DNA from: Candidatus Syntropharchaeum butanivorans
Lineage (GTDB): Archaea; Halobacteriota; Syntropharchaeia; Syntropharchaeales; Syntropharchaeaceae
Assembly: GCA_001766825.1 (NCBI GenBank)
Contig: LYOR01000001.1
Coordinates: 287,746-351,745 of the forward strand
DNA: 64,000 bases
Reading direction: 5' to 3'
Both the position numbers and the translations under genes were made by a program. The notes under the pieces were generated by a model, which had not been told where the DNA came from, made no database searches, and saw only the letters and a list, made by a program, of their open reading frames with translations. Below, one piece after another: positions 2,603 through 44,254 of this stretch. Position 1 is the first letter of the stretch; each line of letters starts with the position of its first letter.

Positions 2603-5600
2603 TCATGTTCCCCTGCTCATCCACTCCCTCACATAATCATCCGATCCAAGATCAAGCCGCGGGATGCGCTCGGTTGAGACCTTCTTGAGAACTCCGAAGA
2701 ACTCCTCCTCCACCCGTGCTTTTGCAGCCTCATCCCTGCCCTCAACCCTGCATATTACCATGGGCTGGGTGTTCGACTTCCTGATCAACGCCTGGCCCAC
2801 CCAGCCCTTATCATCGTACCACCTTATGATTCCACCATCCGTCCTATCGATCTCAAACCCCATTGCTTCAAAGATCTCAAGCGCCTTTCTCACAACCTCC
2901 TCCTTCTCATCGAGGTGGTTTGTAGGGAGCCTTATATTAATCTCAGGGGTTGCAGGGTATCTCGGGACCTCCTCGTCAAGATCGATGAACGTCCTGCCAC
3001 GCCGTTTTGCCTTTGCAATAACACTCAGGATCTTCACCGCTGCAAGTGTCCCATCATCAAACATCCAGTTCTCCTCCTGTCCTGACATCTGATGCCCTGA
3101 AAGCTCTGCTGCAAGAACCACTCCCTCCTCCCCCTTCTCCTTTGAGGCCAGGTATATCTCCTTCATCCGCTCCTTTATGAAGGCAAATCCAGTTGGAGAC
3201 ATGATATAGATCCCTCCATGGGAGGTTATAAACTCCTCAGTGACCCTTGAGAACTTTACCTCTCCCATAAACCTGGGAACCTTTCCCTTCTTCCTGTACT
3301 CCTCTATTATATCCTTTGCCTGGATTGCAAGCGTCCTATCTCCCTCAACGACCCTGCCATCTGATCTCACAAATATCACCCGATCCCCATCCTCATCATG
3401 ACCGAACCCAACGACCTCCTTCTCCTTCTCGCTCTCAGCAACCTTAACAGTTAACTCCTCAAGCTGTCTCCGGTACTTCGCCTTTATTGGATCTGGATGG
3501 TGTGCCGGAAACCTACCATCAGGTGTCTCATTAAGCCCCACGACCTCACAGCCCAGGTTCAGATATACGCTCTTTGTTCTCCACGTGGACCCGTTCCCGA
3601 AGTCTATAACTACCTTAAGACCATCAAGCGGGGCAGCAACCGCGGTCTCCGGCATCTCAATCTCATCCGGTATCCTGAGCCTCTTTTTGATCTCCTGCCA
3701 CCGCTTACCATCTGCTTTTCCTGGAAACTCGATTTCTGCCAGTGTATCAAGGAGTTCTTTCAGATCCCACTCCCTCAAGAGGTGTATCCATATCTCCCGC
3801 CCCAGCCTGCAGTTTGATTCAACGAGAAGGTTGTGATACCGGGGGATAAGCCCATCCTTGACCTTAACACGCTCCCCCTTTCCATAGAGAAAGTCAGATC
3901 CGAGGATTATCCGTTTTATCTCAAGCATCTGGTCTGCATTTATGCTCATTATAAACTCATCGTCGCTTCTTATCACCTGCTTGAGCCCGTTGTAGATTGC
4001 CTCATTGTGGGATGCTGTTATATTTATCCCACCATCTGCATGAAGGAAGGGGATTGCAAAGTAAAGTTCAGGGGTTGAGGTTATCCCGATATCATAGACG
4101 TTGACCCCACTTGAGCGGATCCCATCGATCAATGCCTTTCTTATCCGTTCTGTCGAGAGCCTTATCCCCCCTCCAACACATACCCAGTGCTCACTCTCCT
4201 CTCCCCTCTCACGCCTGAGGTACGTACCATACCCCTTTCCAAGGTAGTAGCATATCCTGTCCGGAAGCATCGTCTCAGGGGCCCTGACATCGTATGTCTG
4301 GAAGATCACAGGGTCTATATGCGAGGGGGTGCGAAGGTACGACTTTAAGACCTTCCCGTTTGATCTGAGCATGTATGAGGTGATTGAGGCAGGAATGAGA
4401 GCCGTCTCACCTGTGCTTAACCGCTCTTTCCTCCCATTATACTCGATCTCAGCCTCTCCTTCGATACACGTCAGCGTGTGGAATGATCCCTTCGTCTCCT
4501 GCAGACCGCTTGATGCGAGAGAGAGTGTGAAATAAACCGTATCAAGGAGCACGGTCTCACCATCAATCTCCCTTGGAGTCTGCTTCAGGCTCTCTGCATC
4601 CTGGTCGGTGATAGATACAAGACATGCCTTATCGAGATGGGTCTCTCGCTGCCGTCCCCAGTCCCAGACCCGGTAGGTGAGGTCAGAGGACTCCTGTATC
4701 TCAAAAAGATGGGTCCCCGCACCTATCGCATGTAGCGTTCCTGGGGGAACGAGAAAGACGTCCCCTTTCTTGATCTCAACCCCGTGGAGAACGTCCTCAC
4801 AGATCTCAGAAAGATCAGCGATCTGTCTTCTCAGAGAGAGGTATATCTTTGCACCCGGCTCTGCATCTATCACGTACCATCCTTCTGTCTTTCCGGGTTC
4901 AGGCTCTCCAAGCCGTGCTGCATCATCATCTGATGGATGCACCTGGACAGAGAGGTTCTCCCTTGCATAGATGAACTTGAGGATTACAGGAAACTCCCCC
5001 CTGAAATCTCTGTAGAGTTGATCCCCGATAATCTCCTCCCCCCGGTGGTTCAGGAGATGAATAAGCGATACATCGATCTCACCTACCTTTATCATCGATG
5101 GATTTTTTGGATGGCCCGAGCAGATCCAGGACTCGCTGCCCCATGGCTTTTCAAGGGTTGAGCCGCTCAGCCTTATGACTGAGCGGCTTAACTGCTCGAA
5201 TTTATCCCCGAGATTGAGCCTCCAGTATCTCTCCCAGGTCTCCCTCTCTCGAAGTGTATCATCGATTGGGACATCTCTCATGAGATGCTCAAGCTCACGG
5301 TATGAGTAAGGATTTGGAAGAAGTCTCATGTCCCAATCCTTCTTCCCGTCCCGTAGAATCCCCCTTTTCATCCTGATCTTACCTTTCATCGGGTGAAAGA
5401 GATCAGCAACCACGTTCTCATCCCCAAGATCAAACCCTGAAAGCTCGATGCAGTTGTAAATAAGGGACTTATTACCGCTAACACCCCTTATCATACTCGA
5501 TATTACGACGCATTCATTGAGATCTGAGTCCTCAACCCTGCTATCAACGACGACACACCCCCTGAGCATGCCTTCGACCTCAGAACCAATGATCCCGGAG

Positions 5601-6664
5601 CTATCTGCCCTGAAGAACGCTCGCATCACCTCCCCCTCCTCTGTATCCTGCGTGAGCTTGAGGAGGTGCTCGTGGTAGAGTATGGGCTGTCCGAGGTCCC
5701 ACCAGTACGTACCTGCTCCCATATCCTTATCACCGAAGATCGCACCTTTTGAGTCGAACCTCTTTATAAGCGGCTCAACCCGCGCTCGCTTCTCAGGCTC
5801 AACCCTGTCAGGAGATGTGAGTGGCATCCAGAGATCAGGGTCTGTATCAAGCTTCCTTCGCTCCTCCAGGTCCTTCTTAAACTCAGATAGAACCTCAATG
5901 AAGAACTCGTATGATATTGAGAAGCACCCAAGTCCCTTACCAATTATAATCCGTCCATCCTCCTGTTTTATCACACCATCCTCAACCAAACGCTCAAACT
6001 CATCCCAGCTCTGCTTCTCAAGCATCATACACCCATCTTCTCTCGGAATCACAAGACCATACGCCTGCCATTCACGCTCCCATTCCTCACGAGTATCTGG
6101 AGCAGGCTTTCTTATCGTGAAGAGCTCAACATGATGCTTCCCCTCAAACTCCACATCACCCGAGGGGATGAAGATCTGATCTGCCCAGAATACACATATC
6201 CGCCCTTTTCTGGATGGTGCAAATATCGAGGACTGGTATATCACCGCCTCAAGCAGCCGCATCGGGACCTTTCTTCCAGAAAGATTGAGAAGTCCGGGAA
6301 GTTTAATACCCGCCTTATCATTTCCCTCAGATTGAACAAGCGGTGCCATCCGTTTCCCATACCCTGCGGTGTGATAGATTGCAATCTTCCCCCCTTGCCT
6401 GAGAAGTGATTCGAGATCCTCATACGCTGAGACCTTCTCCCACGCGTTCAACGTGCCAAGAAGCTGTCCAGCCTCCCACTCCTCAACAACACAGTATATC
6501 CTCGCATCTTTACCGATGATCTGATCCTTCACAGCCTCAAGTCTCTCCTTCCAGAATGCTGCCTGTTTATCACTCGATGTGACGATAATGACCAGATCAA
6601 ACCCCTCAGATCCCTGGATGATCTCATCCATCCGCTGGATGTGGGTATAATAGCAGGTGCTCAT
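2603..6664 (-). CDS. three-domain sugar-activation fusion: N-terminal nucleotidyltransferase-like domain + type I phosphomannose isomerase + phosphomanno/phosphoglucomutase
   Basis: Single 1353-aa ORF. Residues ~500-780 carry PMI cupin motifs (EKPWGSESW, LSVQVHPSDD, GKTEGWYVIDAEPGA, PPGTLHAIG). Residues ~785-1353 carry alpha-D-phosphohexomutase motifs (GGINITASHNEAIYNGLK with the catalytic Ser, AAELSGHQM). Residues 1-480 (DLVIIVTSSDKQAAFWKERLE, FWADQIFIPSGD) resemble the fucose-1-P guanylyltransferase-type pyrophosphorylase domain. Confidence 0.8.
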   Translation of the reverse strand: MSTCYYTHIQRMDEIIQGSEGFDLVIIVTSSDKQAAFWKERLEAVKDQIIGKDARIYCVVEEWEAGQLLGTLNAWEKVSAYEDLESLLRQGGKIAIYHTAGYGKRMAPLVQSEGNDKAGIKLPGLLNLSGRKVPMRLLEAVIYQSSIFAPSRKGRICVFWADQIFIPSGDVEFEGKHHVELFTIRKPAPDTREEWEREWQAYGLVIPREDGCMMLEKQSWDEFERLVEDGVIKQEDGRIIIGKGLGCFSISYEFFIEVLSEFKKDLEERRKLDTDPDLWMPLTSPDRVEPEKRARVEPLIKRFDSKGAIFGDKDMGAGTYWWDLGQPILYHEHLLKLTQDTEEGEVMRAFFRADSSGIIGSEVEGMLRGCVVVDSRVEDSDLNECVVISSMIRGVSGNKSLIYNCIELSGFDLGDENVVADLFHPMKGKIRMKRGILRDGKKDWDMRLLPNPYSYRELEHLMRDVPIDDTLRERETWERYWRLNLGDKFEQLSRSVIRLSGSTLEKPWGSESWICSGHPKNPSMIKVGEIDVSLIHLLNHRGEEIIGDQLYRDFRGEFPVILKFIYARENLSVQVHPSDDDAARLGEPEPGKTEGWYVIDAEPGAKIYLSLRRQIADLSEICEDVLHGVEIKKGDVFLVPPGTLHAIGAGTHLFEIQESSDLTYRVWDWGRQRETHLDKACLVSITDQDAESLKQTPREIDGETVLLDTVYFTLSLASSGLQETKGSFHTLTCIEGEAEIEYNGRKERLSTGETALIPASITSYMLRSNGKVLKSYLRTPSHIDPVIFQTYDVRAPETMLPDRICYYLGKGYGTYLRRERGEESEHWVCVGGGIRLSTERIRKALIDGIRSSGVNVYDIGITSTPELYFAIPFLHADGGINITASHNEAIYNGLKQVIRSDDEFIMSINADQMLEIKRIILGSDFLYGKGERVKVKDGLIPRYHNLLVESNCRLGREIWIHLLREWDLKELLDTLAEIEFPGKADGKRWQEIKKRLRIPDEIEMPETAVAAPLDGLKVVIDFGNGSTWRTKSVYLNLGCEVVGLNETPDGRFPAHHPDPIKAKYRRQLEELTVKVAESEKEKEVVGFGHDEDGDRVIFVRSDGRVVEGDRTLAIQAKDIIEEYRKKGKVPRFMGEVKFSRVTEEFITSHGGIYIMSPTGFAFIKERMKEIYLASKEKGEEGVVLAAELSGHQMSGQEENWMFDDGTLAAVKILSVIAKAKRRGRTFIDLDEEVPRYPATPEINIRLPTNHLDEKEEVVRKALEIFEAMGFEIDRTDGGIIRWYDDKGWVGQALIRKSNTQPMVICRVEGRDEAAKARVEEEFFGVLKKVSTERIPRLDLGSDDYVREWMSRGT

Positions 6665-6697
6665 GTCTTTATCTTGAGTTCAGATTAAAAAAATGTA

Positions 6698-6770
6698 CGC
6701 CCAGGTCGGGATTCGAACCCGAGTCGAAGCCTCGACAGGGCTCCATGATGGGCCACTACACTACCCGGGC
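6698..6770 (-). tRNA. tRNA-Asp (GTC)
   Basis: Minus-strand 73 nt: GCCCGGGTAGTGTAGTGGCCCATCATGGAGCCCTGTCGAGGCTTCGACTCGGGTTCGAATCCCGACCTGGGCG. The 7-bp acceptor stem is GCCCGGG/CCTGGGC, the anticodon loop is CTGTCGA, and the T-loop is GGTTCGAATCC. No CCA is encoded. Confidence 0.9.
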
Positions 6771-6800
6771 ATGGCTATAGTATCCACTGCCCGACCCTAT

Positions 6801-7187
6801 TTAAGTCTTTTCTCTTATAAAGAGTATATGGGTATTGCTCCAGGGCAGGGCCTCCTCTACCCCCATATAATCCTCTCTGCACTCATCACATAGATCCCTG
6901 AGTGATATTGAACCAACCTCTGACGTCCCGGGTATCGTTGAAGCATAAATTATCTCAGGGTCGAGCTCAAGCTCTGCTGCCGCCTCTCTGAGAGTCGGGG
7001 TGATCTTTGGCGCGAAGATCTCCACCTCCTCCATCTCAAGCCCTGCAGTAAAGATCGTGATGCCGGTGCATCCGCAGGCAAAAGAGGATGCACTGAGCTG
7101 TACAACCCAGACCGTTCTCCCTGTGAGCCTGCCAAGCTCCTTCTCAATCGAAGCTCTCCACTCAAGAAGTTTCGCCGGGAGTTTCAA
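6801..7187 (-). CDS. hypothetical Cys-containing protein, last gene of the McrA-like operon
   Basis: 128-aa ORF whose start overlaps the stop of the upstream U32-like gene by 26 nt. It contains CGC and CDEC motifs. No family recognised, and the start is uncertain. Confidence 0.45.
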   Translation of the reverse strand: MKLPAKLLEWRASIEKELGRLTGRTVWVVQLSASSFACGCTGITIFTAGLEMEEVEIFAPKITPTLREAAAELELDPEIIYASTIPGTSEVGSISLRDLCDECREDYMGVEEALPWSNTHILFIREKT

Positions 7188-8214
7188 TCTGTTTCATCTC
7201 CTCCCATGCTGTTCCTTTTCCAACGTAAACCCTCATAACGCGCGCTGCCAGATCCCTGCAGAACCCGCACCTGTGACAGATCTTATCACACCGTTTCCAC
7301 CGCTCCAGTGCGCCATCAAGCTCCTCGTTCGGGATGTAGAATAAGCTCCGCATGCTGCGCGAGTAGTCCAGGATGTTCAGGAGATTGCCGTGATAGCTCC
7401 GCTCTTTATAAGCTGCTATCGTCTCAATTATCCAGCTTACAGGCTGATTTCTACCACTTATCTTGAATGTATCGATCCCTATCTCCTCATAGGCTCCAAG
7501 GTCCTCTGGTCTCACCCAGTTTGCCTTCATGATAAGCCAGGGTTTCTTCACCCTCAATGACCTGCATCTTCGCTGGTAATAGCTGAATGAAATTCTCGGG
7601 TGGGGTGGGGGGCCTGATGTGTGGGATACAACGTTGAAGTCAAAAGGCCTGAACGGGCACTTGTAAAGGCACCCCTCGTTCACAAGAATCCTTATCTCAC
7701 AGGAGACAGCATCCACAATCGCTTCAAGCAGGCGAAAGTCCCTGTTTATACTCGTGTCAGGTGTGATTGCATCTGCCCCAAGCTCCTCATAGAATATGGC
7801 CTTCTCTGGAGAGTCCACAAATGAGATACATGATACAACCACATCGAATGAGAAGTTTTTCGATGCCACCTCGATCAGGTAGGGGTCAGCAAGTGTCACC
7901 GCATCAACACCACATGATGCAAGATCCTCAAAGTATCGCATGTAGAGATTTATACCCTCATCGGTGAGGTGTTTTCCACCCACACACGAGGCGTTCATCA
8001 GGACGTTTATCCTCACACCATGCCGGTGGCAAAGCTCGGTCTGACGCTCTATGAGATCGTGATCATGAGGTGCTTCCCCAAGCCCCTGCCTTCCCGTGGA
8101 TACGTAATCGGATGATCCTGCAATATATACCTCATAAAGGTCGCCTGATCTCGCCTCCAATATCTCCTTAGTCCCGTCAAGGTGCCCGGGCAGTGGTGCA
8201 CAGAGCTTCATCAA
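7162..8214 (-). CDS. peptidase U32 family protein (Fe-S-type, UbiU/RlhA/TrhP-like fold family)
   Basis: 350-aa ORF, colinear by eye with U32 proteins. Matching blocks are N-terminal KLCAPLPG...EVYIAG (cf. ELLCPAG...DAVYIG), GVDAVTLADPYLIE, VNEGCLYKCPF and TFKISGRNQP (cf. KIEGRQRSP). It also has a C-terminal CDKICHRCGFC Cys cluster. Confidence 0.75.
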   Translation of the reverse strand: MMKLCAPLPGHLDGTKEILEARSGDLYEVYIAGSSDYVSTGRQGLGEAPHDHDLIERQTELCHRHGVRINVLMNASCVGGKHLTDEGINLYMRYFEDLASCGVDAVTLADPYLIEVASKNFSFDVVVSCISFVDSPEKAIFYEELGADAITPDTSINRDFRLLEAIVDAVSCEIRILVNEGCLYKCPFRPFDFNVVSHTSGPPPHPRISFSYYQRRCRSLRVKKPWLIMKANWVRPEDLGAYEEIGIDTFKISGRNQPVSWIIETIAAYKERSYHGNLLNILDYSRSMRSLFYIPNEELDGALERWKRCDKICHRCGFCRDLAARVMRVYVGKGTAWEEMKQIETPGETS

Positions 8215-8250
8215 AAGGGTCCAGGCAAAAATAAGGGGAAAAATAAAGAT

Positions 8251-8847
8251 TCAGGGGTGGCCATCTGGCCACATCATCGCCCTTACTTCCTTCCCGAGAT
8301 CATCATCACACTCGGTCTTCCAGCGCTTACCGTGTGCGAGCATGATGATATCCTTGAAATCGATCATCGCCGTCATGTTACCTCTCAGCACCGGGCCACC
8401 GTAAATCTCGTTGATCTTTCCGCTATCACAGATCGGATCTGTCGGCCTCTTCTCCCCAAGCAGGATCTTCACCAGGTCGTAGTAGTCGATCCTGAAGATG
8501 CTGTCGACCTCAACACCTGATCCAGGCTCAGGTTCACCCTTTCTTATCCCACCGGGGGATATCATGAACCTGTTGTACTCAAGCCCTCGCTCAGGGTGCC
8601 AGGTCTCGATGAGGATCGATCTGGGCGGGAACCTCGAGGATACGATCGTACACTTCGGGTTTGGCACGATCATGTTGACGTAGAAGTCAAAGAGCAGCTC
8701 GTAAGATGTTGGCTCGTGGTCCTTCACCTGGATCCAGTCAACGTCCTTCCACCACCCATCAGGCAGGGGCGGTGTTGGGAGGAAGTGCCCAGGTTGATTC
8801 TCATAGTCTGTGGGTGCAACCTCTCCATAGTACACCATCGACATCAC
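8251..8847 (-). CDS. hypothetical protein with a possible SCP2-like C-terminal segment; McrA-like operon member
   Basis: 198-aa ORF starting 6 nt after the McrA-like stop. It has no McrG/McrC/McrD motifs. The C-terminal DSIFRIDYYDLVKILLGEKRPTDPICDSGKI...LRGNMTAMIDFKDI loosely follows the SCP2 pattern (D..l..s..dl.kll.Gkl.p..Af..GKl...Gdm..a.k). Confidence 0.6.
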   Translation of the reverse strand: MMSMVYYGEVAPTDYENQPGHFLPTPPLPDGWWKDVDWIQVKDHEPTSYELLFDFYVNMIVPNPKCTIVSSRFPPRSILIETWHPERGLEYNRFMISPGGIRKGEPEPGSGVEVDSIFRIDYYDLVKILLGEKRPTDPICDSGKINEIYGGPVLRGNMTAMIDFKDIIMLAHGKRWKTECDDDLGKEVRAMMWPDGHP

Positions 8848-8853
8848 CTCCTC

Positions 8854-10725
8854 TTATCGCGCGGGTCTGATGAGGTCCCGCTCACCTGCAGGCTCATACT
8901 CCTTCGCAGCGCCCTTCGCGATGCAGAGCCTCACGTTCTTGAAGTCGAATGTAGAGTCAGGATCTGCAAATGCGACCTTAACCAGCGGGCTTGCACACCA
9001 TGAAGAACCCCTGCCGATCATAGCAGCGTATGTCCCGGTCACGTACCCCGGCGTGTGTGTTGCGGTGTATGAGAACATCGGATAGTTGGCCCCTCGAAGC
9101 TCCGGGAGTCCACCCTCCTCGATCCTGAGAGATGGCCCGTATGGAAGCCCTGCATGTGCCTGGACCTCCTGGCCTCCGAACCCGGTCCTGAGCCACCCCT
9201 CCTTCATGAGGAGTGAGACGACATAGTTCTGGACCATCATACCCATGAGCGAGTCGCCTGTCAGCAGGGATGCAAATGAGTTCGAGATTGCAGACGTGAT
9301 GAAGCATCTGATCGCACCACCCCAGTGAAGCTCCTGGAGTGTCGGATACTTCTCGTATGTCTCCATGAGATACAGGGCTGCGATCTCACCGAACCCCTTT
9401 GCGCAGTCCCAGGTGTCCGGTACACGTTCATGCCCCTCAAAGTTGTAGTAGCAGAGCTCGGTGAACCTGTTTAGCCAGTCATCCAGGATGTTACCGAGAT
9501 ACAGGTACGCGAACGCGGGGAACCCGACCCCGCCTGACATGTAGATACCATACCATACCGCATCAATCTGTGCCCCAACTGCGGCAGACTCAAGGACCGC
9601 TTGGGTCAGATCCTTTCCAAGCTGCATATCCCGATCAATGGAGACGACCTTGAGCCATGGCGTGTTCGGCATCTCCTTCTCCGCACAGCACATATCTGAC
9701 CAGTAACCGATCGGGATTCCACCGGGCTCATTCGGCGCATTTGTCCTTGAGAGCCACGTAGCAAGCCCCATGTGAATCGCCTGGGCGTGCCTCGTTGCGA
9801 AGGATATATCAGAGAGGACAGACTCACCTGTGAGTTTGTATGCAGCCACGAATGACATTGTCACCGCGATCGCAGCACTCCTGATCACAGCAGCGCCGTT
9901 TGTCATCCTCACCCTGAGTGTGTGGGTTCTGATCGTATTAAAGAGCCTGTTTCCGATCATCTCATTCAGAGGTTCAGCCCGTGTTGGATGGAACTCCTTA
10001 TCAATATTGAGCACCCATCTCCTGTCAAACTGATCCCGAAGGTCCGGGTTACCGGTTATGATCTTTGCATATGCATCTGTGACAAGCCCGGGATGTGTCT
10101 CTGCCATGTGCTCCTGGACAACCGCACCACCTGCAAGCACATGTTGGATCGTCTCCATGTAGAGGTTCATCGACTCAGGGGAGATCTCCTTACCGAGCCT
10201 GAGCTGGATGACCCGGTGTGGGACATCAAGCCCCATGATCACGGTCTTTCTCATGTCGTCCATCATCTGCTGGATTGCGCAGTTGTTGTAGACCGAGAAG
10301 TCATCATAATCCACGATGTAATCCGTGTTTGAGACAAGAACAGGCTCATAATATCGCTGGCCAAGCGGGATACCCATCTCACGGTTGTACTGTGGGATTC
10401 CACGCTCGATCGCGATCTTCTTACCCCATTCAACCCACATCCGCTTTGACCTGGACTGCTGGACACCACCATGCCGGTAGGATTGTTTATCCACGGTATC
10501 CATCGGCTCGCCCTCAAAGAGCGTGTGGAGCGCTTTGTACATCTCCCGCTGGCGCTCCACAGGCATGAACTGATCTTTCAGTTTCAGCGGATCGTACTGA
10601 TATGCAAGCTCCGTGGAAATGACAGTACCCTCTGTGACCTTGTGGAAGAGCTGATCCCGGTACCCTTCTGCAACCTCCTCAAGTGATGCTGGCTTTGCAC
10701 CAGCCTTCTTCTTCTTTTTTGCCAA
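8854..10725 (-). CDS. divergent methyl/alkyl-coenzyme M reductase alpha-subunit (McrA) homologue
   Basis: 623-aa ORF with a TTG start preceded by GGAGGTGAGGTGA. By-eye alignment to McrA is colinear over ~530 aa. Shared blocks are RGIPQYN, PLGQR, NNxAxQQMxDDxRKTVI, RLGKExxPE, GGAVVQEHMAETHP (axial-ligand Gln), AIHMG, NEPGGIPxGY, YMSGGVGF...NILDD, ELRGANYP, PLVKVAFADPD..FDF and EPAGERDLIRPA. Confidence 0.9.
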   Translation of the reverse strand: MAKKKKKAGAKPASLEEVAEGYRDQLFHKVTEGTVISTELAYQYDPLKLKDQFMPVERQREMYKALHTLFEGEPMDTVDKQSYRHGGVQQSRSKRMWVEWGKKIAIERGIPQYNREMGIPLGQRYYEPVLVSNTDYIVDYDDFSVYNNCAIQQMMDDMRKTVIMGLDVPHRVIQLRLGKEISPESMNLYMETIQHVLAGGAVVQEHMAETHPGLVTDAYAKIITGNPDLRDQFDRRWVLNIDKEFHPTRAEPLNEMIGNRLFNTIRTHTLRVRMTNGAAVIRSAAIAVTMSFVAAYKLTGESVLSDISFATRHAQAIHMGLATWLSRTNAPNEPGGIPIGYWSDMCCAEKEMPNTPWLKVVSIDRDMQLGKDLTQAVLESAAVGAQIDAVWYGIYMSGGVGFPAFAYLYLGNILDDWLNRFTELCYYNFEGHERVPDTWDCAKGFGEIAALYLMETYEKYPTLQELHWGGAIRCFITSAISNSFASLLTGDSLMGMMVQNYVVSLLMKEGWLRTGFGGQEVQAHAGLPYGPSLRIEEGGLPELRGANYPMFSYTATHTPGYVTGTYAAMIGRGSSWCASPLVKVAFADPDSTFDFKNVRLCIAKGAAKEYEPAGERDLIRPAR

Positions 10726-10762
10726 TTCACCTCACCTCCATAATTTTATAAAAATAAAAAAA

Positions 10763-11314
10763 TTACTTAAGCCCCCAGCGCCTGAGCTCATACTCCGCGG
10801 GATTCCCGTGCCCCTTGCCCTCAGGGGTGATCCCGTACTGATCAAGCTCATCCTGGGTGGGTTTGTACCCTTCTTTCTCGATCTTCTCCACGATCGCCAC
10901 ATACCCTGGCGGAGCCCTTGGCTCGCCATGCTCCTCGATCCAGCCAAACATCTTCCCCTCATTGGTGAACTTCTCCGCAGGCAACCTCAGGTTGTTCGTC
11001 CCAGGCTCAACCACCGGTACGTCACACCATCCTTCCCATCTCACCCACTTGTGACCATTCTCGCAGGTGTAGACGTAAAGTGGTGTTGCCTCCCCTCCAT
11101 AGACCATTGCCTTTGCCTTCGTCGTCTTTGGGCCAAGGAACCGCCCGGCATCAGGGACGTACGTGTAAAGCGGCTCCTTGTTCACGATCTTTGCCTTGCA
11201 TGCCGGTATATTATATATATCGTTATCAAAGCCGGAATGTGGACAGAGCTTGTCCACGTTTACCATACCATTCTCAATGATCTTCTTGGTAACGCTGTAA
11301 TCTATCGGCGGCAT
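10763..11314 (-). CDS. hypothetical protein (4 Cys), McrA-like operon member
   Basis: 183-aa ORF, 3 nt after the 375-aa gene and 37 nt before the McrA-like gene. Cys residues occur at CPHSG, PAC, TCENGH and GWC. I find no resemblance to McrG, McrC or McrD. Confidence 0.6.
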   Translation of the reverse strand: MPPIDYSVTKKIIENGMVNVDKLCPHSGFDNDIYNIPACKAKIVNKEPLYTYVPDAGRFLGPKTTKAKAMVYGGEATPLYVYTCENGHKWVRWEGWCDVPVVEPGTNNLRLPAEKFTNEGKMFGWIEEHGEPRAPPGYVAIVEKIEKEGYKPTQDELDQYGITPEGKGHGNPAEYELRRWGLK

Positions 11315-11317
11315 CTT

Positions 11318-12445
11318 TCACACCTCCTCCATCATCCACTCGGGATGCTCCTTCCTTGCTTTATATATGATCTCAGTGGCATCCCTGTGCGAGACCACAG
11401 TCTTTGCCGGGAGTGGATACTCTGTTGGATGCTGGACCCTTGCCTCCTCACCATAGATGTACTTGGACTGCTTGAACGTATCCGGGAAGACGTACCTGTC
11501 CATACCATACCTTATAATCCGCCTTGCGGTCTCCTCTGGAGTGCATGGAACGATCTCCATACCCTCTATCTCAAGGTGTATCTCATGTGGTGAGATCGTG
11601 TACTTGCTGGACCAGTTATCACCCAGAATCAGCGCGTTCCACCTCCAGTTGAAGATATCAGGCGGATTTTCCACGAGAAGCTCAAGCCCCACTGGCCTTG
11701 GTAGCTCATCGCAGGTTGACTTGAAGGGCCAGCCCATCTTCTCACAGTTGAAGAACGGGTACATCCCCATGACCGCGTCCATCGTGGATCTTGAGGGGAA
11801 AGCCTCGTTGTACCCGTGATGGGACTGCCAGCATCCCTGATGGTATGCAGACATCGCATACTCCGGAGTATCCTCGTTTCTGACATCCATCAGGATATCT
11901 CTGATGAGCATCACAGCCTCAAACGCTGGGTAGGAGTATGGGAGATCTCTCACCGGTTTTCCAACCTTCATGTGCTTCCGCTCAATAAGCTCCTGCCCCT
12001 CACCTGGATCCGTCATCGCGATGTACGTCATCACACCATCCTCGTAGTGGTACGAGACGGTATGAGGGTTTGCCCTCCCTGAGAAGTTATCTGATTGCAG
12101 CCAGCATAGATCGAGGGACTTGCCGAATAACGCAATCGTTGCCGCAGGATCAAGCGGAACAGCCGCGGAGTAACAGGGTGGATAACCAAGTGTAACGGTT
12201 GTTTTATCCGGGTCTGTCAGAAGCCCCTGGGTCCAGAGATTGACCGTCTGAGAGGATTCAAGCATCCCGATCCTCCACCACTGTGAGACCTCGGTCTGCC
12301 GATACTTATCAAGCGCCTGTGTAAGCTTGAGTGGGGTCTCACGCTTCGGGTCCCCGGGTCTTCCGACCACATGCGTCTCAAACATCCACCGCTCATACGC
12401 CCATTCCTCTGTGAAATCGTGATGCGGCCTTCCTATCTTCTCCAT
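11318..12445 (-). CDS. hypothetical protein, first gene of the McrA-like operon
   Basis: 375-aa ORF with an ATG start and GGAGG 7 nt upstream. It is Trp/aromatic-rich. The McrB hallmarks as I remember them (e.g. the C-terminal Gly-rich SIYGGGGPG block) are absent. No family recognised. Confidence 0.65.
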   Translation of the reverse strand: MEKIGRPHHDFTEEWAYERWMFETHVVGRPGDPKRETPLKLTQALDKYRQTEVSQWWRIGMLESSQTVNLWTQGLLTDPDKTTVTLGYPPCYSAAVPLDPAATIALFGKSLDLCWLQSDNFSGRANPHTVSYHYEDGVMTYIAMTDPGEGQELIERKHMKVGKPVRDLPYSYPAFEAVMLIRDILMDVRNEDTPEYAMSAYHQGCWQSHHGYNEAFPSRSTMDAVMGMYPFFNCEKMGWPFKSTCDELPRPVGLELLVENPPDIFNWRWNALILGDNWSSKYTISPHEIHLEIEGMEIVPCTPEETARRIIRYGMDRYVFPDTFKQSKYIYGEEARVQHPTEYPLPAKTVVSHRDATEIIYKARKEHPEWMMEEV

Positions 12446-12581
12446 CTAAGCGCCTCCTTTTATATCACAATTAATCTGCATATATATGCTTGCATACCCC
12501 TATCTCAACTCATTCTATATATAGTTAATGCTTTGGAGATTCACCGAGCCATCCTGAGATTCCTGAGATACCTGCGTGTGA
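12446..12581 (-). promoter_or_regulatory. putative promoter/leader of the McrA-like operon
   Basis: This is a 136-bp AT-rich spacer between the PolX stop and the 375-aa gene start. SD GGAGG lies at 12453-12457 (minus sense). Palindromic TATA-like elements are GCATATATATGC (12478-12489) and CTATATATAG (12515-12524). Motif-level evidence only. Confidence 0.3.
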
Positions 12582-33450: not shown

Positions 33451-34302
33451 ATGAAGATAAGTAAAGTAATGAATAGCACGGGGTTAATCAGGCTGATCCT
33501 TCTTGCAATCGGGATTATAGGAGTGACCTTTCTGGTGATGCCCCAGACGGTCTCGCTATTTGCAGGTCAGCATACGTGGTACAATCTATCAGGTGAGGCA
33601 AACGATCTACCATGTGAGAAGTGTCATGGGGATGTTTACGAGGAGATGATGAGTATGGAGCCGTTGAGTAAGAAACTTGCAGGTCAATCCAGTTCGCCGC
33701 ATAGTTATATGGACGAGAACTGTGAACTGTGCCACCGCACCTGTTTCAACAACACATTCAGTTGGAGCTCCGGCAAGTATGAGAAATCACCAGGATTCAC
33801 TTATGCTAGTGGCAGTGGAACGGGTTCAACACCCGGTGTGGAAGCTCATGCAGCCTCCATAATAGAATGCATGGACTGTCATGGTATCCCTGCGGATGAT
33901 GGATACTGGGAACACTGGAGCTATGCTGAATACAGTAGTCGGTGTTTCCTCTGCCATGGAGGTTCCGGATGGTATCGTGGACACTATATTACAATTCCCA
34001 GCAGGGGTTGGAGTGATTTCATCTCAGCAGGTGGTTTCGGGCTTGGTACAACCGAGACAGACACAGGTGAGAAAGCGGCACACAGGCAGTTCGTCCTTGA
34101 TGCCATCAACAACTCCCTCATGGAAGATGCGAACGAAGCTTGCATCGCATGTCACACAGAAAACCAGGTTCGGATGGAGTTTAATGTATCAACCGGGGTC
34201 ATAATCACGGTGAATAACTCATACACACAGACATCCTCGTACTGGAGCGTGAGTGATATCACACCATCAAATTATACGACGTATGTGGAGGTTAAGAGCT
34301 GA
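33451..34302 (+). CDS. membrane-anchored pentahaem c-type cytochrome
   Basis: 283 aa with an N-terminal TM helix and five CxxCH motifs (CEKCH, CELCH, CMDCH, CFLCH, CIACH). Confidence 0.85.
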   Translation: MKISKVMNSTGLIRLILLAIGIIGVTFLVMPQTVSLFAGQHTWYNLSGEANDLPCEKCHGDVYEEMMSMEPLSKKLAGQSSSPHSYMDENCELCHRTCFNNTFSWSSGKYEKSPGFTYASGSGTGSTPGVEAHAASIIECMDCHGIPADDGYWEHWSYAEYSSRCFLCHGGSGWYRGHYITIPSRGWSDFISAGGFGLGTTETDTGEKAAHRQFVLDAINNSLMEDANEACIACHTENQVRMEFNVSTGVIITVNNSYTQTSSYWSVSDITPSNYTTYVEVKS

Positions 34303-35543
34303 TGAGAAGGGAGATCCTCTTCATTGCATTCATCTTCGCGATCGCAGCCGTTATTCTCTACACATCCACAGATACCGTCTCACTCTTTGCAGGTCAGCAC
34401 ACCTTTATCGCAATCTCTGATTCAGGAAACCAGATCAACTGCACCTGGTGCCATTCAAGAATAAACAGTGAGCTTTCAAACTCCTCTCTCCACGAGGACC
34501 TGAGCTGTGAGGCATGCCACAGATATAACGGCACAGGAATTACGTTTGCATCAGGGGATACCTCGGGATCAACCCCTGGAAATGAATCCCATGCCGCGTA
34601 TGTACCTCGCTGTCTTGATTGTCATGACAGTGACGGGGCATGGATTGAGAACAGGACCGGGAGCCTGAAATATGCACCGCCTGCAAAGGCGTTCAGCGAA
34701 CCTGATCACGGGACAGATTACTCCGCACATAAGCGATTTGTGCTTGAAGCAAATGCATCAGATGCAAGCCCTGGTGAGAATGAGGCGTGTCTTGCGTGTC
34801 ATACAGATTATACAGTCAGTCTGAGCTACAGCTACTTCTGGAACATTGGTTATACACTTTCATCATGGAGCTTCACGAGCTTTTCATACAACGGCACAAG
34901 GAACTACAATATTAAGTGGAGCAAATCCGGGGCAAAGCATGAGTTTGTCAGCCTTAACAGTATAGACTGTACAGGATGCCATAAAAACATCTATGATGCG
35001 CTTGTCATTGGTACAGATGGGGGTTCAAACGAGGATTACCTGACGCACGCACCGGTGGAGATTGACGCCAGTCACTGGGATACGGATAACCCCTGGGGGC
35101 ATTACAGATACCATTACATCCCGGCTTCAAACAGAGCTACATGGGTCAACAGTACATACTGCCTGAAGTGTCACAACGTGACTGAATACGCGTCTGAGCA
35201 TCCATCGGATAATACGACCTACAGCTTGGCTGATGTGAGCATGGACACAAACTCAACCTCAGTCCACTGTGCTGAGGCTTTAACATGTGCAACATGCCAT
35301 GGCAGCGGGAAGACGAAGGCGGTTATAGATAATCCAGAGAGAAGTGGAACAGGACACAGCGGATCAAGCTTTGTCGATAACATCGCCTCAAATTATGCAA
35401 GAACCTTCAACGGTGATATATGTATGGGCTGTCATGAGGCGGCGGTACATCCACAGAGCATGGGATGTAGTAGATGCCACTCAAAGGGAAATGTGGATGT
35501 TACGATCGAATCAGAGCCATCAGGATATTGTACGAATAACTGA
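34302..35543 (+). CDS. membrane-anchored nonahaem c-type cytochrome (paralogue of the preceding gene)
   Basis: 413 aa with an N-terminal TM helix and nine CxxCH motifs (CTWCH, CEACH, CLDCH, CLACH, CTGCH, CLKCH, CATCH, CMGCH, CSRCH). The start overlaps the upstream stop (ATGA). Confidence 0.85.
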   Translation: MRREILFIAFIFAIAAVILYTSTDTVSLFAGQHTFIAISDSGNQINCTWCHSRINSELSNSSLHEDLSCEACHRYNGTGITFASGDTSGSTPGNESHAAYVPRCLDCHDSDGAWIENRTGSLKYAPPAKAFSEPDHGTDYSAHKRFVLEANASDASPGENEACLACHTDYTVSLSYSYFWNIGYTLSSWSFTSFSYNGTRNYNIKWSKSGAKHEFVSLNSIDCTGCHKNIYDALVIGTDGGSNEDYLTHAPVEIDASHWDTDNPWGHYRYHYIPASNRATWVNSTYCLKCHNVTEYASEHPSDNTTYSLADVSMDTNSTSVHCAEALTCATCHGSGKTKAVIDNPERSGTGHSGSSFVDNIASNYARTFNGDICMGCHEAAVHPQSMGCSRCHSKGNVDVTIESEPSGYCTNN

Positions 35544-40487: not shown

Positions 40488-41549
40488 ATGATAATCGCAA
40501 AGAAAGAGCTTAAAGGCCTTCTGAACGAGAAGACACTCATCCTTGCTCTGCTGATTCAGCTTTTTATCGCATCGTTCTCCTCATTCCTCGTCCTCGGCCT
40601 CGTCTCGCTCTACAACCCCGGGGTACTCGAGGATTATAACCTCAAAGGAGCAACAATCGGAGTTGTTGGGGATTCTAAGGGGCTTCTGACAGGATTTATT
40701 AGACTGGATGGGAAGCTCAGAGTGTTCAGCTTTGAGGATATCAAAACAGCAGAAGATGCGTTCTTCAGGGGTAAGATAGACGGGATACTCGTGGTTCCTG
40801 ATACACCTCCTGAGGGAGATGAGCCGATCCAGCTTGAACTTTATCTCCCGAAAAACAGCATAAAGGCGACTGTTATCATGGTTCAGCTCAAAGAACCACT
40901 TGAACGATTCGAGAAATGGATCCGGGAGGTCAGAGGGGTTGAGATACCAGAGATAAACCTCGATCTACCGGAGGGGGTGGACAGTGGTAAGAAGAGATCG
41001 ACCGCCTTCTTCGAGTTTATATATGGACTTCTCATACCGCTACTCATGCTCACACCAGCTTTCATATCAGGTGGCTTAATGATCGACCTTGTGACAGAGG
41101 AGATTGACAGAAAGACGCTCGATATGCTGCTTGTATCACCGATTGGGCGGGCTGAGATACTCGATGGGAAGCTGCTTGTTGCAACCCTGATTGCACCCCT
41201 CCAGGCTTTATGCTGGCTGAGCCTCATGAGATTAAATGGCATTGAGATCCAGAACATTCTCTTAACGCTGTTGATCGTACTTGCGGTAACAGCGGTTTTC
41301 ACCCTGATCTGTGCGATATTATCTGTGAGGTTGGCCCATCGAGGAAACGTCCAGCTTCTGTACTCACTCTTTCTCGTAGTGCTCTTCGCAGCGACATACA
41401 CATTCCCTGTGATGCCGTTTAATCTGGTAACACGGCTTACAGCAGGAAGCAATGGAGCATCCCAGGATGCGATCTTTGTCCTTGTAACGTATGCACTCCT
41501 TGCAGCTCTTCTATATGCACTTCTTCGAAGAAGCCTGAAACCTCAGTGA
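40488..41549 (+). CDS. ABC-2-type transporter permease (NatB-like)
   Basis: MIIAKKELKGLLNEKT... and EEIDRKTLDMLLVSPIGRAEILDGKLL are typical of ABC-2 permeases. The start is set at ATG 40488, 5 nt after the upstream stop. Confidence 0.65.
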   Translation: MIIAKKELKGLLNEKTLILALLIQLFIASFSSFLVLGLVSLYNPGVLEDYNLKGATIGVVGDSKGLLTGFIRLDGKLRVFSFEDIKTAEDAFFRGKIDGILVVPDTPPEGDEPIQLELYLPKNSIKATVIMVQLKEPLERFEKWIREVRGVEIPEINLDLPEGVDSGKKRSTAFFEFIYGLLIPLLMLTPAFISGGLMIDLVTEEIDRKTLDMLLVSPIGRAEILDGKLLVATLIAPLQALCWLSLMRLNGIEIQNILLTLLIVLAVTAVFTLICAILSVRLAHRGNVQLLYSLFLVVLFAATYTFPVMPFNLVTRLTAGSNGASQDAIFVLVTYALLAALLYALLRRSLKPQ

Positions 41550-44254
41550 AGACATCTTCGCACAGGACATCCAGATGCATACTCTGTATCAAGTTCGATA
41601 TGGGCATCAAGCGTTAACACCTGCTCGTGCCTGCTTCTGTACCTGTAAACCGTGATACCTTTACACCCGAGCCTGTGAGCGAGGAGGAAGACCTCTCGCA
41701 CATCCTCAAGGGTTGCATCATGCGGGAGGTTCACGGTCTTTGAGACGCCATTATCGACATACCGCTGGAACGCAGCCTGCATCCTCACATGCCACTCTGG
41801 TGCTATATCCATCGCCGTCTGGAAAATATCCCTGATATCAGATGGGATCTCCATGATATCCCTTATCGTACCGGATTTTGCGATCCTTTTCATCAAATCA
41901 GAACTGTAAAAACCGTGGCTTCGTGAAACCTCCTCAAAGACGTGGTTTACCTCAATGAGCCTCCTTCCATCCATCACATTCCTCACGAATGCAAGCCCGA
42001 AGAGTGGTTCTATCCCACTTGTTGTCCCTGCTATGATGCTGATTGATCCCGTTGGTGCGATCGTTGTGAGTGTTGCATTTCGTATCGCGCTGTACCCTCT
42101 TTCATCCCAGATACTCCCCTCAAAGTTTTTAAATGGTCCCCGTGCCTCTGCGATCTCCTGTGATCGTTTTCGTGCCTCGTTGGCTATGAAGGACATGACC
42201 CTCTCTGCGACCTCAATACCCTCCTCTGAACCATACGGGACGTGAAGCCTCAGGAGAAGCTCTGAAAAACCCATCACTCCGAGGCCGATCTTCCTGTTAG
42301 CCCTTGTAATCTCTTCAATCTGGGGTAGTGGATACCTGTTCACGTCAATTACATTGTCAAGGAAGTGAACGGACGTTCTTACAGTTTCAGCAAGCAGATC
42401 CCAGGCGATTTCACCGTCATCGGTCACCATCCTTGCGAGGTTTATCGAGCCCAGGTTGCATGACTCATAAGGTAATAATGGCTGTTCACCACAGTTATGC
42501 AGATGGAACCCGTTTGCATCAAAGCTGTTTATTCCCGGGACCTGAAGATCATATACGTCCTCAACCCCATCAGGAACCAGTTCCTTCACCGTGGCTACAA
42601 ATCTTTCAGGAGGTATTCTCCCCCTGTAACATCTTATGGCCTGATAAAGCCGATTCATCTTTTCCTTATCCCCGAAGCCAATTTTGTTATAGAAGTGTAG
42701 CACGCTCCTGCCTGAGATCACAAGTTCATTGGGTTTTAGAGGGCGATCCTTCAACCCAAAGCCTGAAATCCTGGAGAATATGCCCATCCTCAACAGCATA
42801 CGTTGCATTGCCTTGAGAAGCTCGAGATTCTCATGGGATAACTTTATAACAACACCTTTCAAGTGATCTTCCTGAACCGATCCACTTACATCGAATATCC
42901 CCCTGATTAACCCTCTATAGAATTCTGACGATGATCTTTCCATCTCTTCGGTTATTATTTTATTTTTAAGATCAAGACCAAGCTCTTTTGAGATTAACTT
43001 CATGGACACACATTCTCTGCTATTTTCAGATGAGTATGGGCCCATGTATTTTCTCCCATCACCCAGGAGCAAACCGGCGATGTAGCCCTCTTTCTCGGTG
43101 AACCTCCCATCCCATCCGCCCAGTGAGGTATGATCATTCACGATGAGCTTATCCCCGGGTCTGAGATCCTGAGCCCTGATCCATTCCCCTTCAACCCTGT
43201 GGCCTCCTCTTCCCACCCTTTTAACCGGATGATCCGGGGTAAGTCGTAGCTCAAAACCTTCCAAGGTCACCAACCTCAGGACCTGCTTTATCCCTGTTCT
43301 GAAAAATCCCCTCCGGGTGGTTTCCCATTTCTTACCATTTACAACAACTGCAAACCTCTTTCCAACCAGTTCTCTGACCTGTCTCGCACCCTCTGCGGTC
43401 ATAATCCATGTATCTGACGTGATGCATGGGTTCGTTGCCTCGATCACACCAACCCCCGGTGTTGGATTTTTCCGGTTGATCTCATCTATAAACAGCATCC
43501 CCGGTTCACCGTTTTTGTGTGCCATGTGAACGATGAGGTCAAAGATCACCTCTGCATCAAGCTCCACCGTCACCTCGCCTGTGCGAGGGTTAACGAGCGG
43601 GTATGATTCTCCGTGGTAAAGCGCATCCATGAACGCGTCTGTAACACCCACAGATATATTGAAGTTTCTCAGCACCCCCTCATGCTCCTTCGCCCTGATA
43701 AACTCGATGATATCAGGGTGTGAGACACTGAGAACCCCGATGTTTGCCCCCCTTCTCCTGCCACCCTGCTTTATCACCTCGGTCGCAACATCAAATATCC
43801 GCATGAATGATACCGGGCCTGATGCAACCCCTTTGGTGGATCCGACAATGTCCCCTCTGGGCCTCAGCCTTGAGAAAGAGAAGCCGGTTCCACCACCACT
43901 CTGCTGGATCAGCGCCATGTGCTTGAGTGTATCGAATATAGATGTAAGCGAGTCGAAGACCGGTAGTACGAAGCATGCACTGAGCTGCCCGATCTCTGTA
44001 CCTGCGTTCATAAGCGTCGGGGAGTTTGGCAGAAAGTAAAGGGACGTCATGAGCCTGTAAAACTCCTCCTCGCTTGAGGCGGGATTATCACCATAGAGAG
44101 CGTCTGCTGCTGCCACCGCCTTTGCAACACGCCTGAACATCTCAACAGGGGTCTCTATGACCTCTCCTTTCTCATTCTTCAGGAGATACCTTCGCCTGAG
44201 AAGTGTGATCGCGTTATCAGAGAGCTTAAGGTCGCTTTCATCCCCTATCATCAC
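41543..44254 (-). CDS. nrdJ: adenosylcobalamin-dependent (class II) ribonucleotide reductase, intein-containing
   Basis: 903-aa ORF with [36 protein letters not shown] and the split active-site motif [21 protein letters not shown]. A 311-aa insert interrupts it. Confidence 0.9.
   Translation of the reverse strand: [903 protein letters not shown]
42494..43426 (-). mobile_element. intein with LAGLIDADG homing-endonuclease domain inside nrdJ
   Basis: Residues 277-587 begin with Cys (CITSDTW) and end in HN, followed by +1 Cys ([10 protein letters not shown]). The LAGLIDADG blocks are [11 protein letters not shown] and [15 protein letters not shown]. Removing the insert restores TNPCGEQ. Confidence 0.85.

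Follow-up and report, generated by a model that had tools for sequence, protein, structure and literature searches.

The DNA considered here, referred to as the window, is a stretch of 64,000 nucleotides from the genome of Candidatus (Ca.) Syntrophoarchaeum butanivorans, in which six genes are packed around a homologue of McrA, which is the alpha subunit in methyl-coenzyme M reductase (MCR). MCRs and alkyl-coenzyme M reductases (ACRs) are (alpha-beta-gamma)2 hexamers, and in the solved MCR and ethyl-coenzyme M reductase structures F430 and the substrate channels are built with residues of beta and gamma. An earlier note, made from the letters alone, had described the cluster as an McrA-like gene with no recognisable McrB or McrG partner. 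The six open reading frames (ORFs) on the minus strand, in the sizes and order first read, were borne out by the ORF coordinates. From the upstream to the downstream end, the locus contains the following features.

12446..12581, minus strand: upstream intergenic spacer of 136 bp, flanked by the stop of a PolX-like gene (12582) and the start codon of the 375-aa gene
11318..12445, minus strand: L, 375 aa, an unannotated family linked to ACR clusters
10763..11314, minus strand: S, 183 aa, the small partner of L, with a Cys3-His motif
8854..10725, minus strand: AcrA, the McrA homologue, 623 aa, PF02745 and PF02249
8251..8847, minus strand: SCP2-like protein, SBU_000313, 198 aa when read from its first start codon and 195 aa in other gene calls
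7162..8214, minus strand: U32-family Cys-rich protein, 350 aa, PF01136, SBU_000312
6801..7187, minus strand: DUF5402 protein, 128 aa, PF17393, overlapping the U32 gene by 26 nt
6697..6771, minus strand: tRNA-Asp(GTC), the downstream boundary of the co-directional block, outside the system

The genes are separated by spacers of 3, 37, 6 and 36 nt, with one 26-nt overlap. The tRNA-Asp noticed earlier downstream of the cluster was confirmed by ARAGORN. The upstream spacer does carry the Shine-Dalgarno and TATA-like motifs ascribed to it, namely GGAGG 8 nt ahead of the start codon, and several boxes of TATATA type (TATATATA / ATATAAAA), and on these motifs it is likely the promoter and 5' leader of the cluster. 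A scan for bacterial sigma-70 promoters and terminators was discarded, since its counts equalled those of shuffled sequences and are meaningless for an archaeon. The G+C content is 0.50-0.556 in the cluster and about 0.50 around it, in line with the earlier statement that the cluster resembles its surroundings. Furthermore, the same six genes were predicted by independent gene callers in four other assemblies. Against another Syntrophoarchaeum species, dN/dS was 0.055 for L, 0.10 for S, 0.09 for AcrA, 0.11 for the SCP2-like gene and 0.20 for the DUF5402 gene, values that are rough, as dS was saturated for the U32 gene and near saturation for the other five. The ORFs of the cluster are real genes under purifying selection.

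The 623-aa product was found to be an intact member of the McrA family, as the earlier note had held. Both alpha domains are present and colinear (PF02745, MCR_alpha_N, 1.6e-87, residues 60-320; PF02249, MCR_alpha, 4.1e-22, residues 388-513), and the protein was aligned over its full length with 18 solved McrA chains, the best E-value being 1.6e-131. The GGAVVQEHM block with the axial Gln is kept (VLAGGAVVQEHMAE opposite ALPGGAVVQEHMVE of Methanothermobacter), and so is His257. Its score against TIGR03256, the equivalog model of canonical McrA, is 482.7 bits, under the cut-off of 767.75. A database protein matches it at 99% identity, and a protein of another metagenome-assembled genome (MAG) of the Syntropharchaeales at 83%. 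Its identity to AcrA proteins is 61% in other Syntropharchaeia, 55% in Ca. Alkanophaga, about 52% in tar-biofilm MAGs and 46% in Bathyarchaeota BA2, and its identity to methanogen McrA is about 40-43%.

Three motifs around the active site are changed in the window protein: FTQY with Tyr333 has become FPAF, GGSQRA with Gln400 has become GGAIRC, and GFYGYDLQDQCG has become GFGGQEVQAHAG. In MCR the GFYGYDLQDQCG loop carries the thioglycine, didehydro-Asp and S-methyl-Cys sites, and Tyr333 and Gln400 are active-site residues. GFGGQEVQAHAG preserves no more of this loop than the Phe and the Gly of the thioglycine site, and Cys452 is replaced. These three changes are common to the BA2, Helarchaeota, Alkanophaga and tar-biofilm enzymes, which also have the motif G(W/F)xGQE.Q.H.G in common. 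The window protein shares the two-domain architecture and the axial Gln with methanogen McrA, whereas its active-site loop, Tyr333, Gln400 and Cys452 are replaced. Judged by these motifs and relatives, the 623-aa protein is of the known multi-carbon ACR type and represents no new enzyme class. Among the PDB matches, the only solved structure of ACR type was the ethyl-coenzyme M reductase of Ca. Ethanoperedens (7B1S), which activates a non-methane alkane and has a homologous alpha subunit (E 4.2e-88); the window protein is more distant from it (300 bits) than from the methanogen MCRs (about 440 bits).

Two further observations concern alpha subunits. Arg271, the 5-methylarginine site within RARGPNEPGG of methanogen McrA, is Asn in the window protein (RTNAPNEPGG); the position is Gln in two other Syntrophoarchaeum species, Arg in most other members of the AcrA clade and His in two. 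A second lone McrA homologue, much more divergent, was seen in a Syntropharchaeia MAG (L004:3641-5317; 558 aa, 40% identity to the window AcrA, with the motifs SMIGSVGITIG and HNSPVG). It directly follows genes (L004:1-3632) whose products are a Prismane/hybrid-cluster-like protein of 791 aa, a URO-D protein and a member of DUF5402, with no mcrB or mcrG nearby.

Neither McrB nor McrG is encoded in the cluster by Pfam, nor in the 64-kb window by tblastn, in which McrB and McrG of a related cluster returned only noise at E<=10; the earlier statement on their absence holds. A candidate pair for the two subunits lies elsewhere in the genome. The supplement of PMC11543930 lists four AcrA genes in Ca. 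Syntrophoarchaeum butanivorans (SBU_001343, SBU_000314, SBU_000718 and SBU_001328), three AcrB genes (SBU_000719, SBU_001329 and SBU_001010) and two AcrG genes (SBU_001009 and SBU_001342), as well as the U32 protein SBU_000312 and the unannotated SBU_000313. The 623-aa protein is SBU_000314, because the consecutive SBU_000312, SBU_000313 and SBU_000314 fit the gene order in the window. By the same published lists, SBU_001009 and SBU_001010 form an acrG-acrB pair without an adjoining acrA. According to a review, S. butanivorans has only three of its four ACR sets in operons, and formation of butyl-coenzyme M is known only at the culture level. Of the two readings first offered, the one in which the McrA-like protein borrows beta and gamma from elsewhere therefore matches the published situation, with AcrA SBU_000314 on one side and the lone pair SBU_001009/001010 on the other.

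The same separation occurs in Ca. Alkanophaga volatiphilum and Ca. Alkanophaga liquidiphilum, in which the "third-cluster" AcrA locus (Zehnle et al. 2023, PMC10322722) encodes the orthologous alpha subunit, 55% identical to that of the window. Expression of that acrA, which is located apart from acrB and acrG, was the highest of any acrA in these organisms and placed it among the top 4-19 expressed genes (PMC10322722). In the source data of that paper, a lone mcrG-mcrB pair is found on another contig, and unannotated genes of 1155 bp and 459 bp adjoin YcaO and the third-cluster acrA. Directly upstream of this acrA stand genes of the L (380 aa) and S (152 aa) families, as in the window, and the paper draws them without annotation. 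The order in Alkanophaga is S-L-YcaO-A followed by CutA1, and, unlike in the window, no SCP2-like, U32 or DUF5402 gene adjoins.

The neighbourhood search in public archaeal genomes that the earlier note had proposed was made, and it revealed that L, S and SCP2-like genes recur around AcrA in several lineages. One genome per species was scanned with two peptide patterns, and ORFs were annotated by hidden Markov models. Genes of AcrA type have L beside them in Alkanophaga and other Syntropharchaeia, in Bathyarchaeota BA2, in tar-biofilm Halobacteriota and in Helarchaeota. The arrangements are given below, in which A, B and G stand for the genes of the alpha, beta and gamma subunits.

L018: B-G-L-S-L-S-A
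L021: B-G-L-S-L-S-A-SCP2
L027: B-G-L-S-A-SCP2
L006, an environmental contig: mcrB-mcrG-(L-S)x3-B12 radical SAM-mcrA-SCP2-S-L
L029, Helarchaeota: A-L-ABC ATPase-SCP2-B-G
Another Syntropharchaeia MAG: S-L-A
Bathyarchaeota BA2: an L homologue of 490 aa, SCP2 (opposite strand), A; mcrB at a distance of 8 kb
Further arrangements: B-G-L-S-A; L-S-L-L-S-A-SCP2; S-L-A-SCP2; and, in Helarchaeota, B-G-A-SCP2

Canonical mcrB and mcrG are clustered with L, S and SCP2-like genes in at least six related loci. Because both coexist in the same clusters, the L/S/SCP2-like module accompanies beta and gamma and does not replace them. This contradicts the second reading first offered, in which an MCR-derived enzyme would use new subunits in place of beta and gamma. 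In the clusters of BA2, Helarchaeota and tar-biofilm Halobacteriota, AcrA is of the clade of the window protein (46-54% identity), and the L, S and SCP2-like families recur. Unlike the window, these clusters hold mcrB and mcrG in cis, often with two to four L-S pairs, and they add B12-radical SAM, ABC ATPase or GlcD/HdrD-like genes; S is not detectable in Helarchaeota and BA2. Genes of maturation type stand directly upstream of acrA, namely YcaO in Alkanophaga and B12-radical SAM in L006 and L007.

L and S were found to diverge together with the alpha subunit. Over 10 clusters, including paralogous clusters within one genome, the pairwise identities among AcrA proteins correlate with those among the adjoining L (r=0.93) and S (r=0.87) proteins, and the entries of such identity matrices are non-independent, so that p-values mean little. 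In paralogous clusters of one MAG the divergence of L and S equals that of AcrA. Between two organisms, orthologous clusters agree in each of the three genes (91, 85 and 75%). The L-S pair is duplicated cluster by cluster in MAG21 and CSMAG_2992. This shows that AcrA, L and S duplicated and diverged as a unit.

Apart from the U32 protein, the flanking proteins had been regarded as non-Mcr unknowns. The first half of this description stands, as none is McrB, McrG, McrC or McrD by Pfam; the second stands only in part, for the 128-aa protein belongs to DUF5402 and the 198-aa protein to the SCP2 fold. The further idea that the 375-, 183- or 198-aa proteins could be McrB or McrG in fast-evolving form failed at the profile level, with no Pfam match and an hhalign probability below 1%. 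For L, S and the SCP2-like family against McrA, McrB, McrG and McrD the hhalign probability was 0.1-0.7% (McrC was compared by Pfam only), and the positive control of McrA against McrB gave 24.6%. Individually, L had no Pfam match to McrB (PF02783/PF02241), an hhalign probability of 0.4% and no MCR match for its structure model; S had no Pfam match to McrG (PF02240) and an hhalign probability of 0.1%; S and the 198-aa protein had no Pfam match to McrC (PF04609) or McrD (PF02505), with an hhalign probability of 0.1% against McrD.

L has no Pfam or NCBIfam match at E<=1 and no match to PDB sequences, profile search included. A profile search against 1.84 billion representative proteins returned only 74 relatives, and a Pfam scan of ten more distant L relatives gave no match in any. 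An AlphaFold model of L built on a 61-sequence alignment reached a predicted local distance difference test (pLDDT) of 87.5 and a predicted template modelling (pTM) score of 0.85; an earlier model from a 10-sequence alignment (pLDDT 38.9) was discarded. In a Foldseek search of the PDB, the model had no match at E<=1e-3, with a best TM score of at most 0.26, and no MCR chain was among the matches listed. Matches of ASKHA type (PilM, FtsA, Hsp70; TM 0.1-0.26, E>=0.087) were considered noise and not read as homology. By this model, L would be a family without a recognisable fold despite the confidence of the prediction. Near-invariant in the 61 sequences are H133, E135, G137, R157, H158, D187, R189, N190 and E191.

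Beyond the ACR clusters, members of the L family were seen at many loci. The expansion loci L029-L071 lie in Helarchaeota LW55_61, Hel_GB_A/B, Meg19_1012_Bin_504 and related uncultured archaea. The neighbours of about 40 scattered Helarchaeota paralogues recur weakly (HdrD-like CCG in five loci, GlcD-like FAD in three), and no clear pathway signal was found in these neighbourhoods. GlcD-like FAD-binding and/or HdrD-like CCG genes also occur beside L or AcrA in BA2, Helarchaeota and related contigs (L007:3681-6331, L029:312-3000, L060:363-3139 and L047:6585-8117). L-family genes were likewise met on bacterial-binned contigs, L045, L048 and L071 of a Ca. Deferrimicrobium MAG and L060 of Desulfobacterales CR_Bin_073. 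One bacterial-binned L protein is 84% identical to a paralogue of Helarchaeota Hel_GB_A, and the G+C content is about 0.38 for the Deferrimicrobium contigs, which is Helarchaeota-like, and 0.45 for the Desulfobacterales contig L060. A spread of L beyond the ACR lineages was set aside, since mis-binning of Helarchaeota contigs is the probable explanation. In the Helarchaeota ACR cluster, L and the SCP2-like gene have between them a gene for a 537-aa ABC-type ATPase with two nucleotide-binding motifs (L029:6319-7932), which by its size and position may be a homologue of MCR activation component A2.

S is 100% identical to a hypothetical protein of Ca. S. butanivorans. Twenty-five homologues were collected, each adjoining an L gene, at gaps of 0-10 nt or with overlaps and in either order; in the window the gap is 3 nt. 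None of the 25 members has a Pfam match, and a profile search of PDB sequences was empty. C24, C39, C84 and H88 are invariant (CCCH motif), and from this Cys3His motif S may be predicted to bind zinc. A stand-alone S-L pair, with an L of 384 aa, is present in three tar-biofilm Halobacteriota MAGs (L022:9656-11146, L026:5164-6675 and L028:9653-11146), away from any ACR gene; as judged from N-termini, a MoeA-like protein of about 655 aa always adjoins and an HdrA-like gene does so once.

The 198-aa protein alone has no Pfam match. It is homologous (E 3e-29) to the BA2 protein beside McrA that matches PF02036 (SCP2), and 5 of the 12 family members match Pfam SCP2 and Alkyl_sulf_C, the best PF02036 match being 2.4e-8. 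The family profile also matches solved SCP2 structures (4UEI at 8.3e-6, 1C44 at 2e-5). On these matches the protein is assigned to an SCP2-fold family. With respect to SCP2 and non-specific lipid-transfer proteins (PF02036; 1C44, 4UEI), it is the C-terminal half of the domains that is matched, at E 8e-6 to 3e-5, whereas the 198-aa family differs in having about 50 extra N-terminal residues, among them the conserved W32, E45 and P46. The gene stands directly after or near acrA in 11 distinct clusters examined. No L, S or SCP2-like chain was found in any PDB entry by sequence and profile searches, 7B1S included. In the supplement of PMC11543930, SBU_000313 is present in 3 of 7 ACR-encoding Syntropharchaeia and in none of 54 MCR-encoding relatives.

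The two remaining genes are more narrowly distributed. The 350-aa protein belongs to the Cys-rich U32 family, as first recognised, with a PF01136 match above the cut-off (6.6e-11; 42.4 bits against 22.4). UbiU/UbiV, TrhP and RlhA are U32-family Fe-S proteins. The window protein lies outside the UbiU and TrhP equivalogs and is only marginally similar to them, with 13.6 bits for UbiU (cut-off 440, E 0.027) and 10.4 bits for TrhP (cut-off 534, E 0.21). It matches the Methanopyrus U32 protein Mk0906 (PDB 5D88) at 1.7e-21, having the U32 core and several conserved Cys, and it differs in an extra C-terminal CX3CX2CX2C motif; its 13 Cys include C309-x3-C-x2-C-x2-C319. The gene adjoins AcrA only in Syntrophoarchaeum loci. 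The 128-aa protein matches PF17393 (DUF5402) at 4.9e-25, with 88.4 bits against a threshold of 25, and the position of its gene is kept in the Syntrophoarchaeum loci L009 and L013. Three U32 paralogues are listed for S. butanivorans (SBU_000312, SBU_000857 and SBU_001041), and the family is found in 5 of 7 ACR-encoding Syntropharchaeia and in 0 of 54 MCR-encoding relatives (PMC11543930 supplement). In that paper, the U32 family and SBU_000313 stand uncommented within a list of more than 500 candidate families.

The cluster therefore encodes a genuine ACR alpha subunit together with a conserved and selected accessory set that is co-inherited with this AcrA clade. As the best explanation, the cluster is probably the alpha half of a split ACR operon, with L, S and the SCP2-like protein as an accessory module of this ACR clade. 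SBU_000314 would bind F430 through the axial Gln and form the usual (alpha-beta-gamma)2 enzyme, with beta and gamma coming from the stand-alone pair SBU_001009/001010, and the enzyme would convert a multi-carbon alkane to alkyl-coenzyme M. The ancestral order may have been B-G-(L-S)n-A-SCP2, the module having stayed with acrA after acrBG moved away. L and S would form a 1:1 pair acting on or with the alpha subunit, in its maturation (post-translational modification), in assembly, or as extra docking subunits; the SCP2-like protein would handle the hydrophobic alkane or alkyl chain, as its fold suggests; and the U32 Fe-S protein and DUF5402 would be genus-specific additions.

For the module, alpha-subunit maturation or assembly, or substrate delivery, appears most likely. 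Maturation, assembly or docking is favoured because L and S co-diverge with alpha and duplicate with each ACR cluster, because they sit where the maturation enzymes YcaO and B12-radical SAM sit, and because alkane-oxidiser genomes have been reported to lack McrD. The mcrBDCGA and mcrBDGA operons of methanogens likewise have small accessory genes amid the structural genes, acting on MCR assembly or activation; unlike in those operons, beta and gamma of the window enzyme lie at another locus, and L, S and the SCP2-like protein have no homology to McrC or McrD.

Several points weigh against this explanation. The pairing of SBU_001009/001010 with SBU_000314 would be arrived at by exclusion, on the gene lists of earlier publications. 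L, S and the SCP2-like protein are known here from genes alone. Several paralogous L-S pairs may accompany a single acrA (L006, L018 and L021), which is unusual for a chaperone. At least 12 L paralogues of about 385-395 aa occur in one Helarchaeota genome, mostly far from ACR genes and with no S partner detected, and the neighbours of the stand-alone tar-biofilm S-L pair are housekeeping-like, so the family is not strictly tied to ACR. The scattered Helarchaeota L genes and the stand-alone pair fit a general, diversifying enzyme better than a dedicated assembly factor. As the survey was a two-pattern scan, absence of the module from Ethanoperedens, Methanoliparia and Hadarchaeota is not established.

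An enzymatic role downstream of the ACR is an unlikely alternative, in which L, S and the SCP2-like protein, plus U32 in Syntrophoarchaeum, would be the missing enzymes from alkyl-coenzyme M to the aldehyde or acyl-CoA. The alkyl chain would be held by SCP2, catalysis would fall to L with its conserved His/Glu/Asp/Arg cluster, and U32 would presumably act as an oxygen-independent hydroxylase like UbiU/UbiV/TrhP. The alkyl-coenzyme M to acyl-CoA step is explicitly described as unknown in the literature, and such a role would agree with the restriction of the module to ACR-bearing lineages and with the counts of 3/7 for SBU_000313 and 5/7 for U32 against 0/54. It would agree as well with the single L-S pair per Syntrophoarchaeum or Alkanophaga genome despite three to four ACRs, as expected of a shared enzyme, with the expansion of L in Helarchaeota, which resembles that of substrate-diversified catabolic enzymes, and with the near-invariant H133/E135/H158/D187/E191. 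However, the tight co-divergence with the adjoining AcrA and the cluster-wise duplication in MAG21 and CSMAG_2992 argue for a partnership specific to each alpha subunit and against a downstream step common to all. In ethane oxidisers and Methanoliparia, which need the same step, the pattern scan did not detect the module; L has no recognisable cofactor-binding or redox motif; and U32 adjoins in one genus only. A broader proposition is that L-S and the SCP2-like protein are an essential, unrecognised part of multi-carbon alkane activation, either as extra ACR subunits or docking proteins delivering the hydrophobic substrate or as the alkyl-coenzyme M to acyl-CoA system with U32 as a possible oxygen-independent hydroxylase. 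This is regarded as possible but doubtful.

It is highly improbable that the McrA-like protein dispenses with McrB and McrG and is assembled with L, S and the 198-aa protein for a different chemistry. The absence of mcrB and mcrG from the cluster and the 64-kb window, the superficial likeness of the L-S-A order to mcrB-G-A, the McrB-like length of long L forms (434-443 aa) and the co-divergence of L and S with alpha could all be read in its favour. It is nevertheless largely refuted by synteny, namely by the loci with canonical mcrB and mcrG beside L, S and SCP2; a spare acrGB pair exists in the same genome and in Alkanophaga, L and S have no sequence or profile likeness to beta or gamma, and the L model has no MCR fold match. 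In addition, F430 and the substrate channels use residues of beta and gamma, and the alpha residues in the window are typical of the ACR clade. Still harder to credit is a decaying or silent paralogue left by rearrangement, with unrelated hypothetical genes as neighbours. Its separation from acrBG, the replaced Arg271 and the TIGR03256 score far under the cut-off would fit such a relic, whereas the full-length ORF is kept at 83-99% in several assemblies, dN/dS stands at 0.09 in AcrA and at 0.05-0.11 in L, S and SCP2, and the axial Gln and the domain architecture are intact. Moreover, the Alkanophaga orthologue is the most highly expressed acrA, and synteny of the neighbours extends over lineages that have been placed in several archaeal phyla.

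Elsewhere in the window, a Pfam scan of 20 other large ORFs identified housekeeping genes. Immediately downstream of the cluster (2603-6664) lies a gene for a 1353-aa fusion of mannose-6-phosphate isomerase/cupin with phosphoglucomutase/phosphomannomutase, in the same position as in other Syntrophoarchaeum loci. Two adjoining multihaem cytochrome c genes (33451-35543; 283 and 413 aa), with cytochrome c3, c7 and MtrC/MtrF-like matches, are plausibly part of electron export to the sulfate-reducing partner. At 41543-44254, the gene of the ribonucleotide reductase large subunit is split by an intein with a LAGLIDADG homing-endonuclease domain.

The earlier note had allowed that the cluster might already be described among ACR operons. 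This holds for the alpha subunit and its separation from beta and gamma, which are published, and does not hold for the L, S and SCP2-like set, which is apparently new. In the searchable literature on lone mcrA, ACR neighbourhoods and extra ACR subunits, where subscription journals are thinly covered, no description of the module was found, nor any paper with both "coenzyme M reductase" and "SCP2".

ACRs enable archaea to oxidise alkanes, from ethane up to the long-chain alkanes of petroleum, without oxygen, and the field is blocked by two gaps, that of the enzymes from alkyl-coenzyme M to acyl-CoA and that of a solved multi-carbon ACR of this clade, none being among the PDB matches. The attractive idea of an McrA homologue working without beta and gamma is corrected here, and such an enzyme with new chemistry is very unlikely. 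What remains of interest is the accessory module, a short list of three protein families against the more than 500 candidate families of PMC11543930, and a concrete lead towards how ACRs are assembled or towards the step that is missing downstream.

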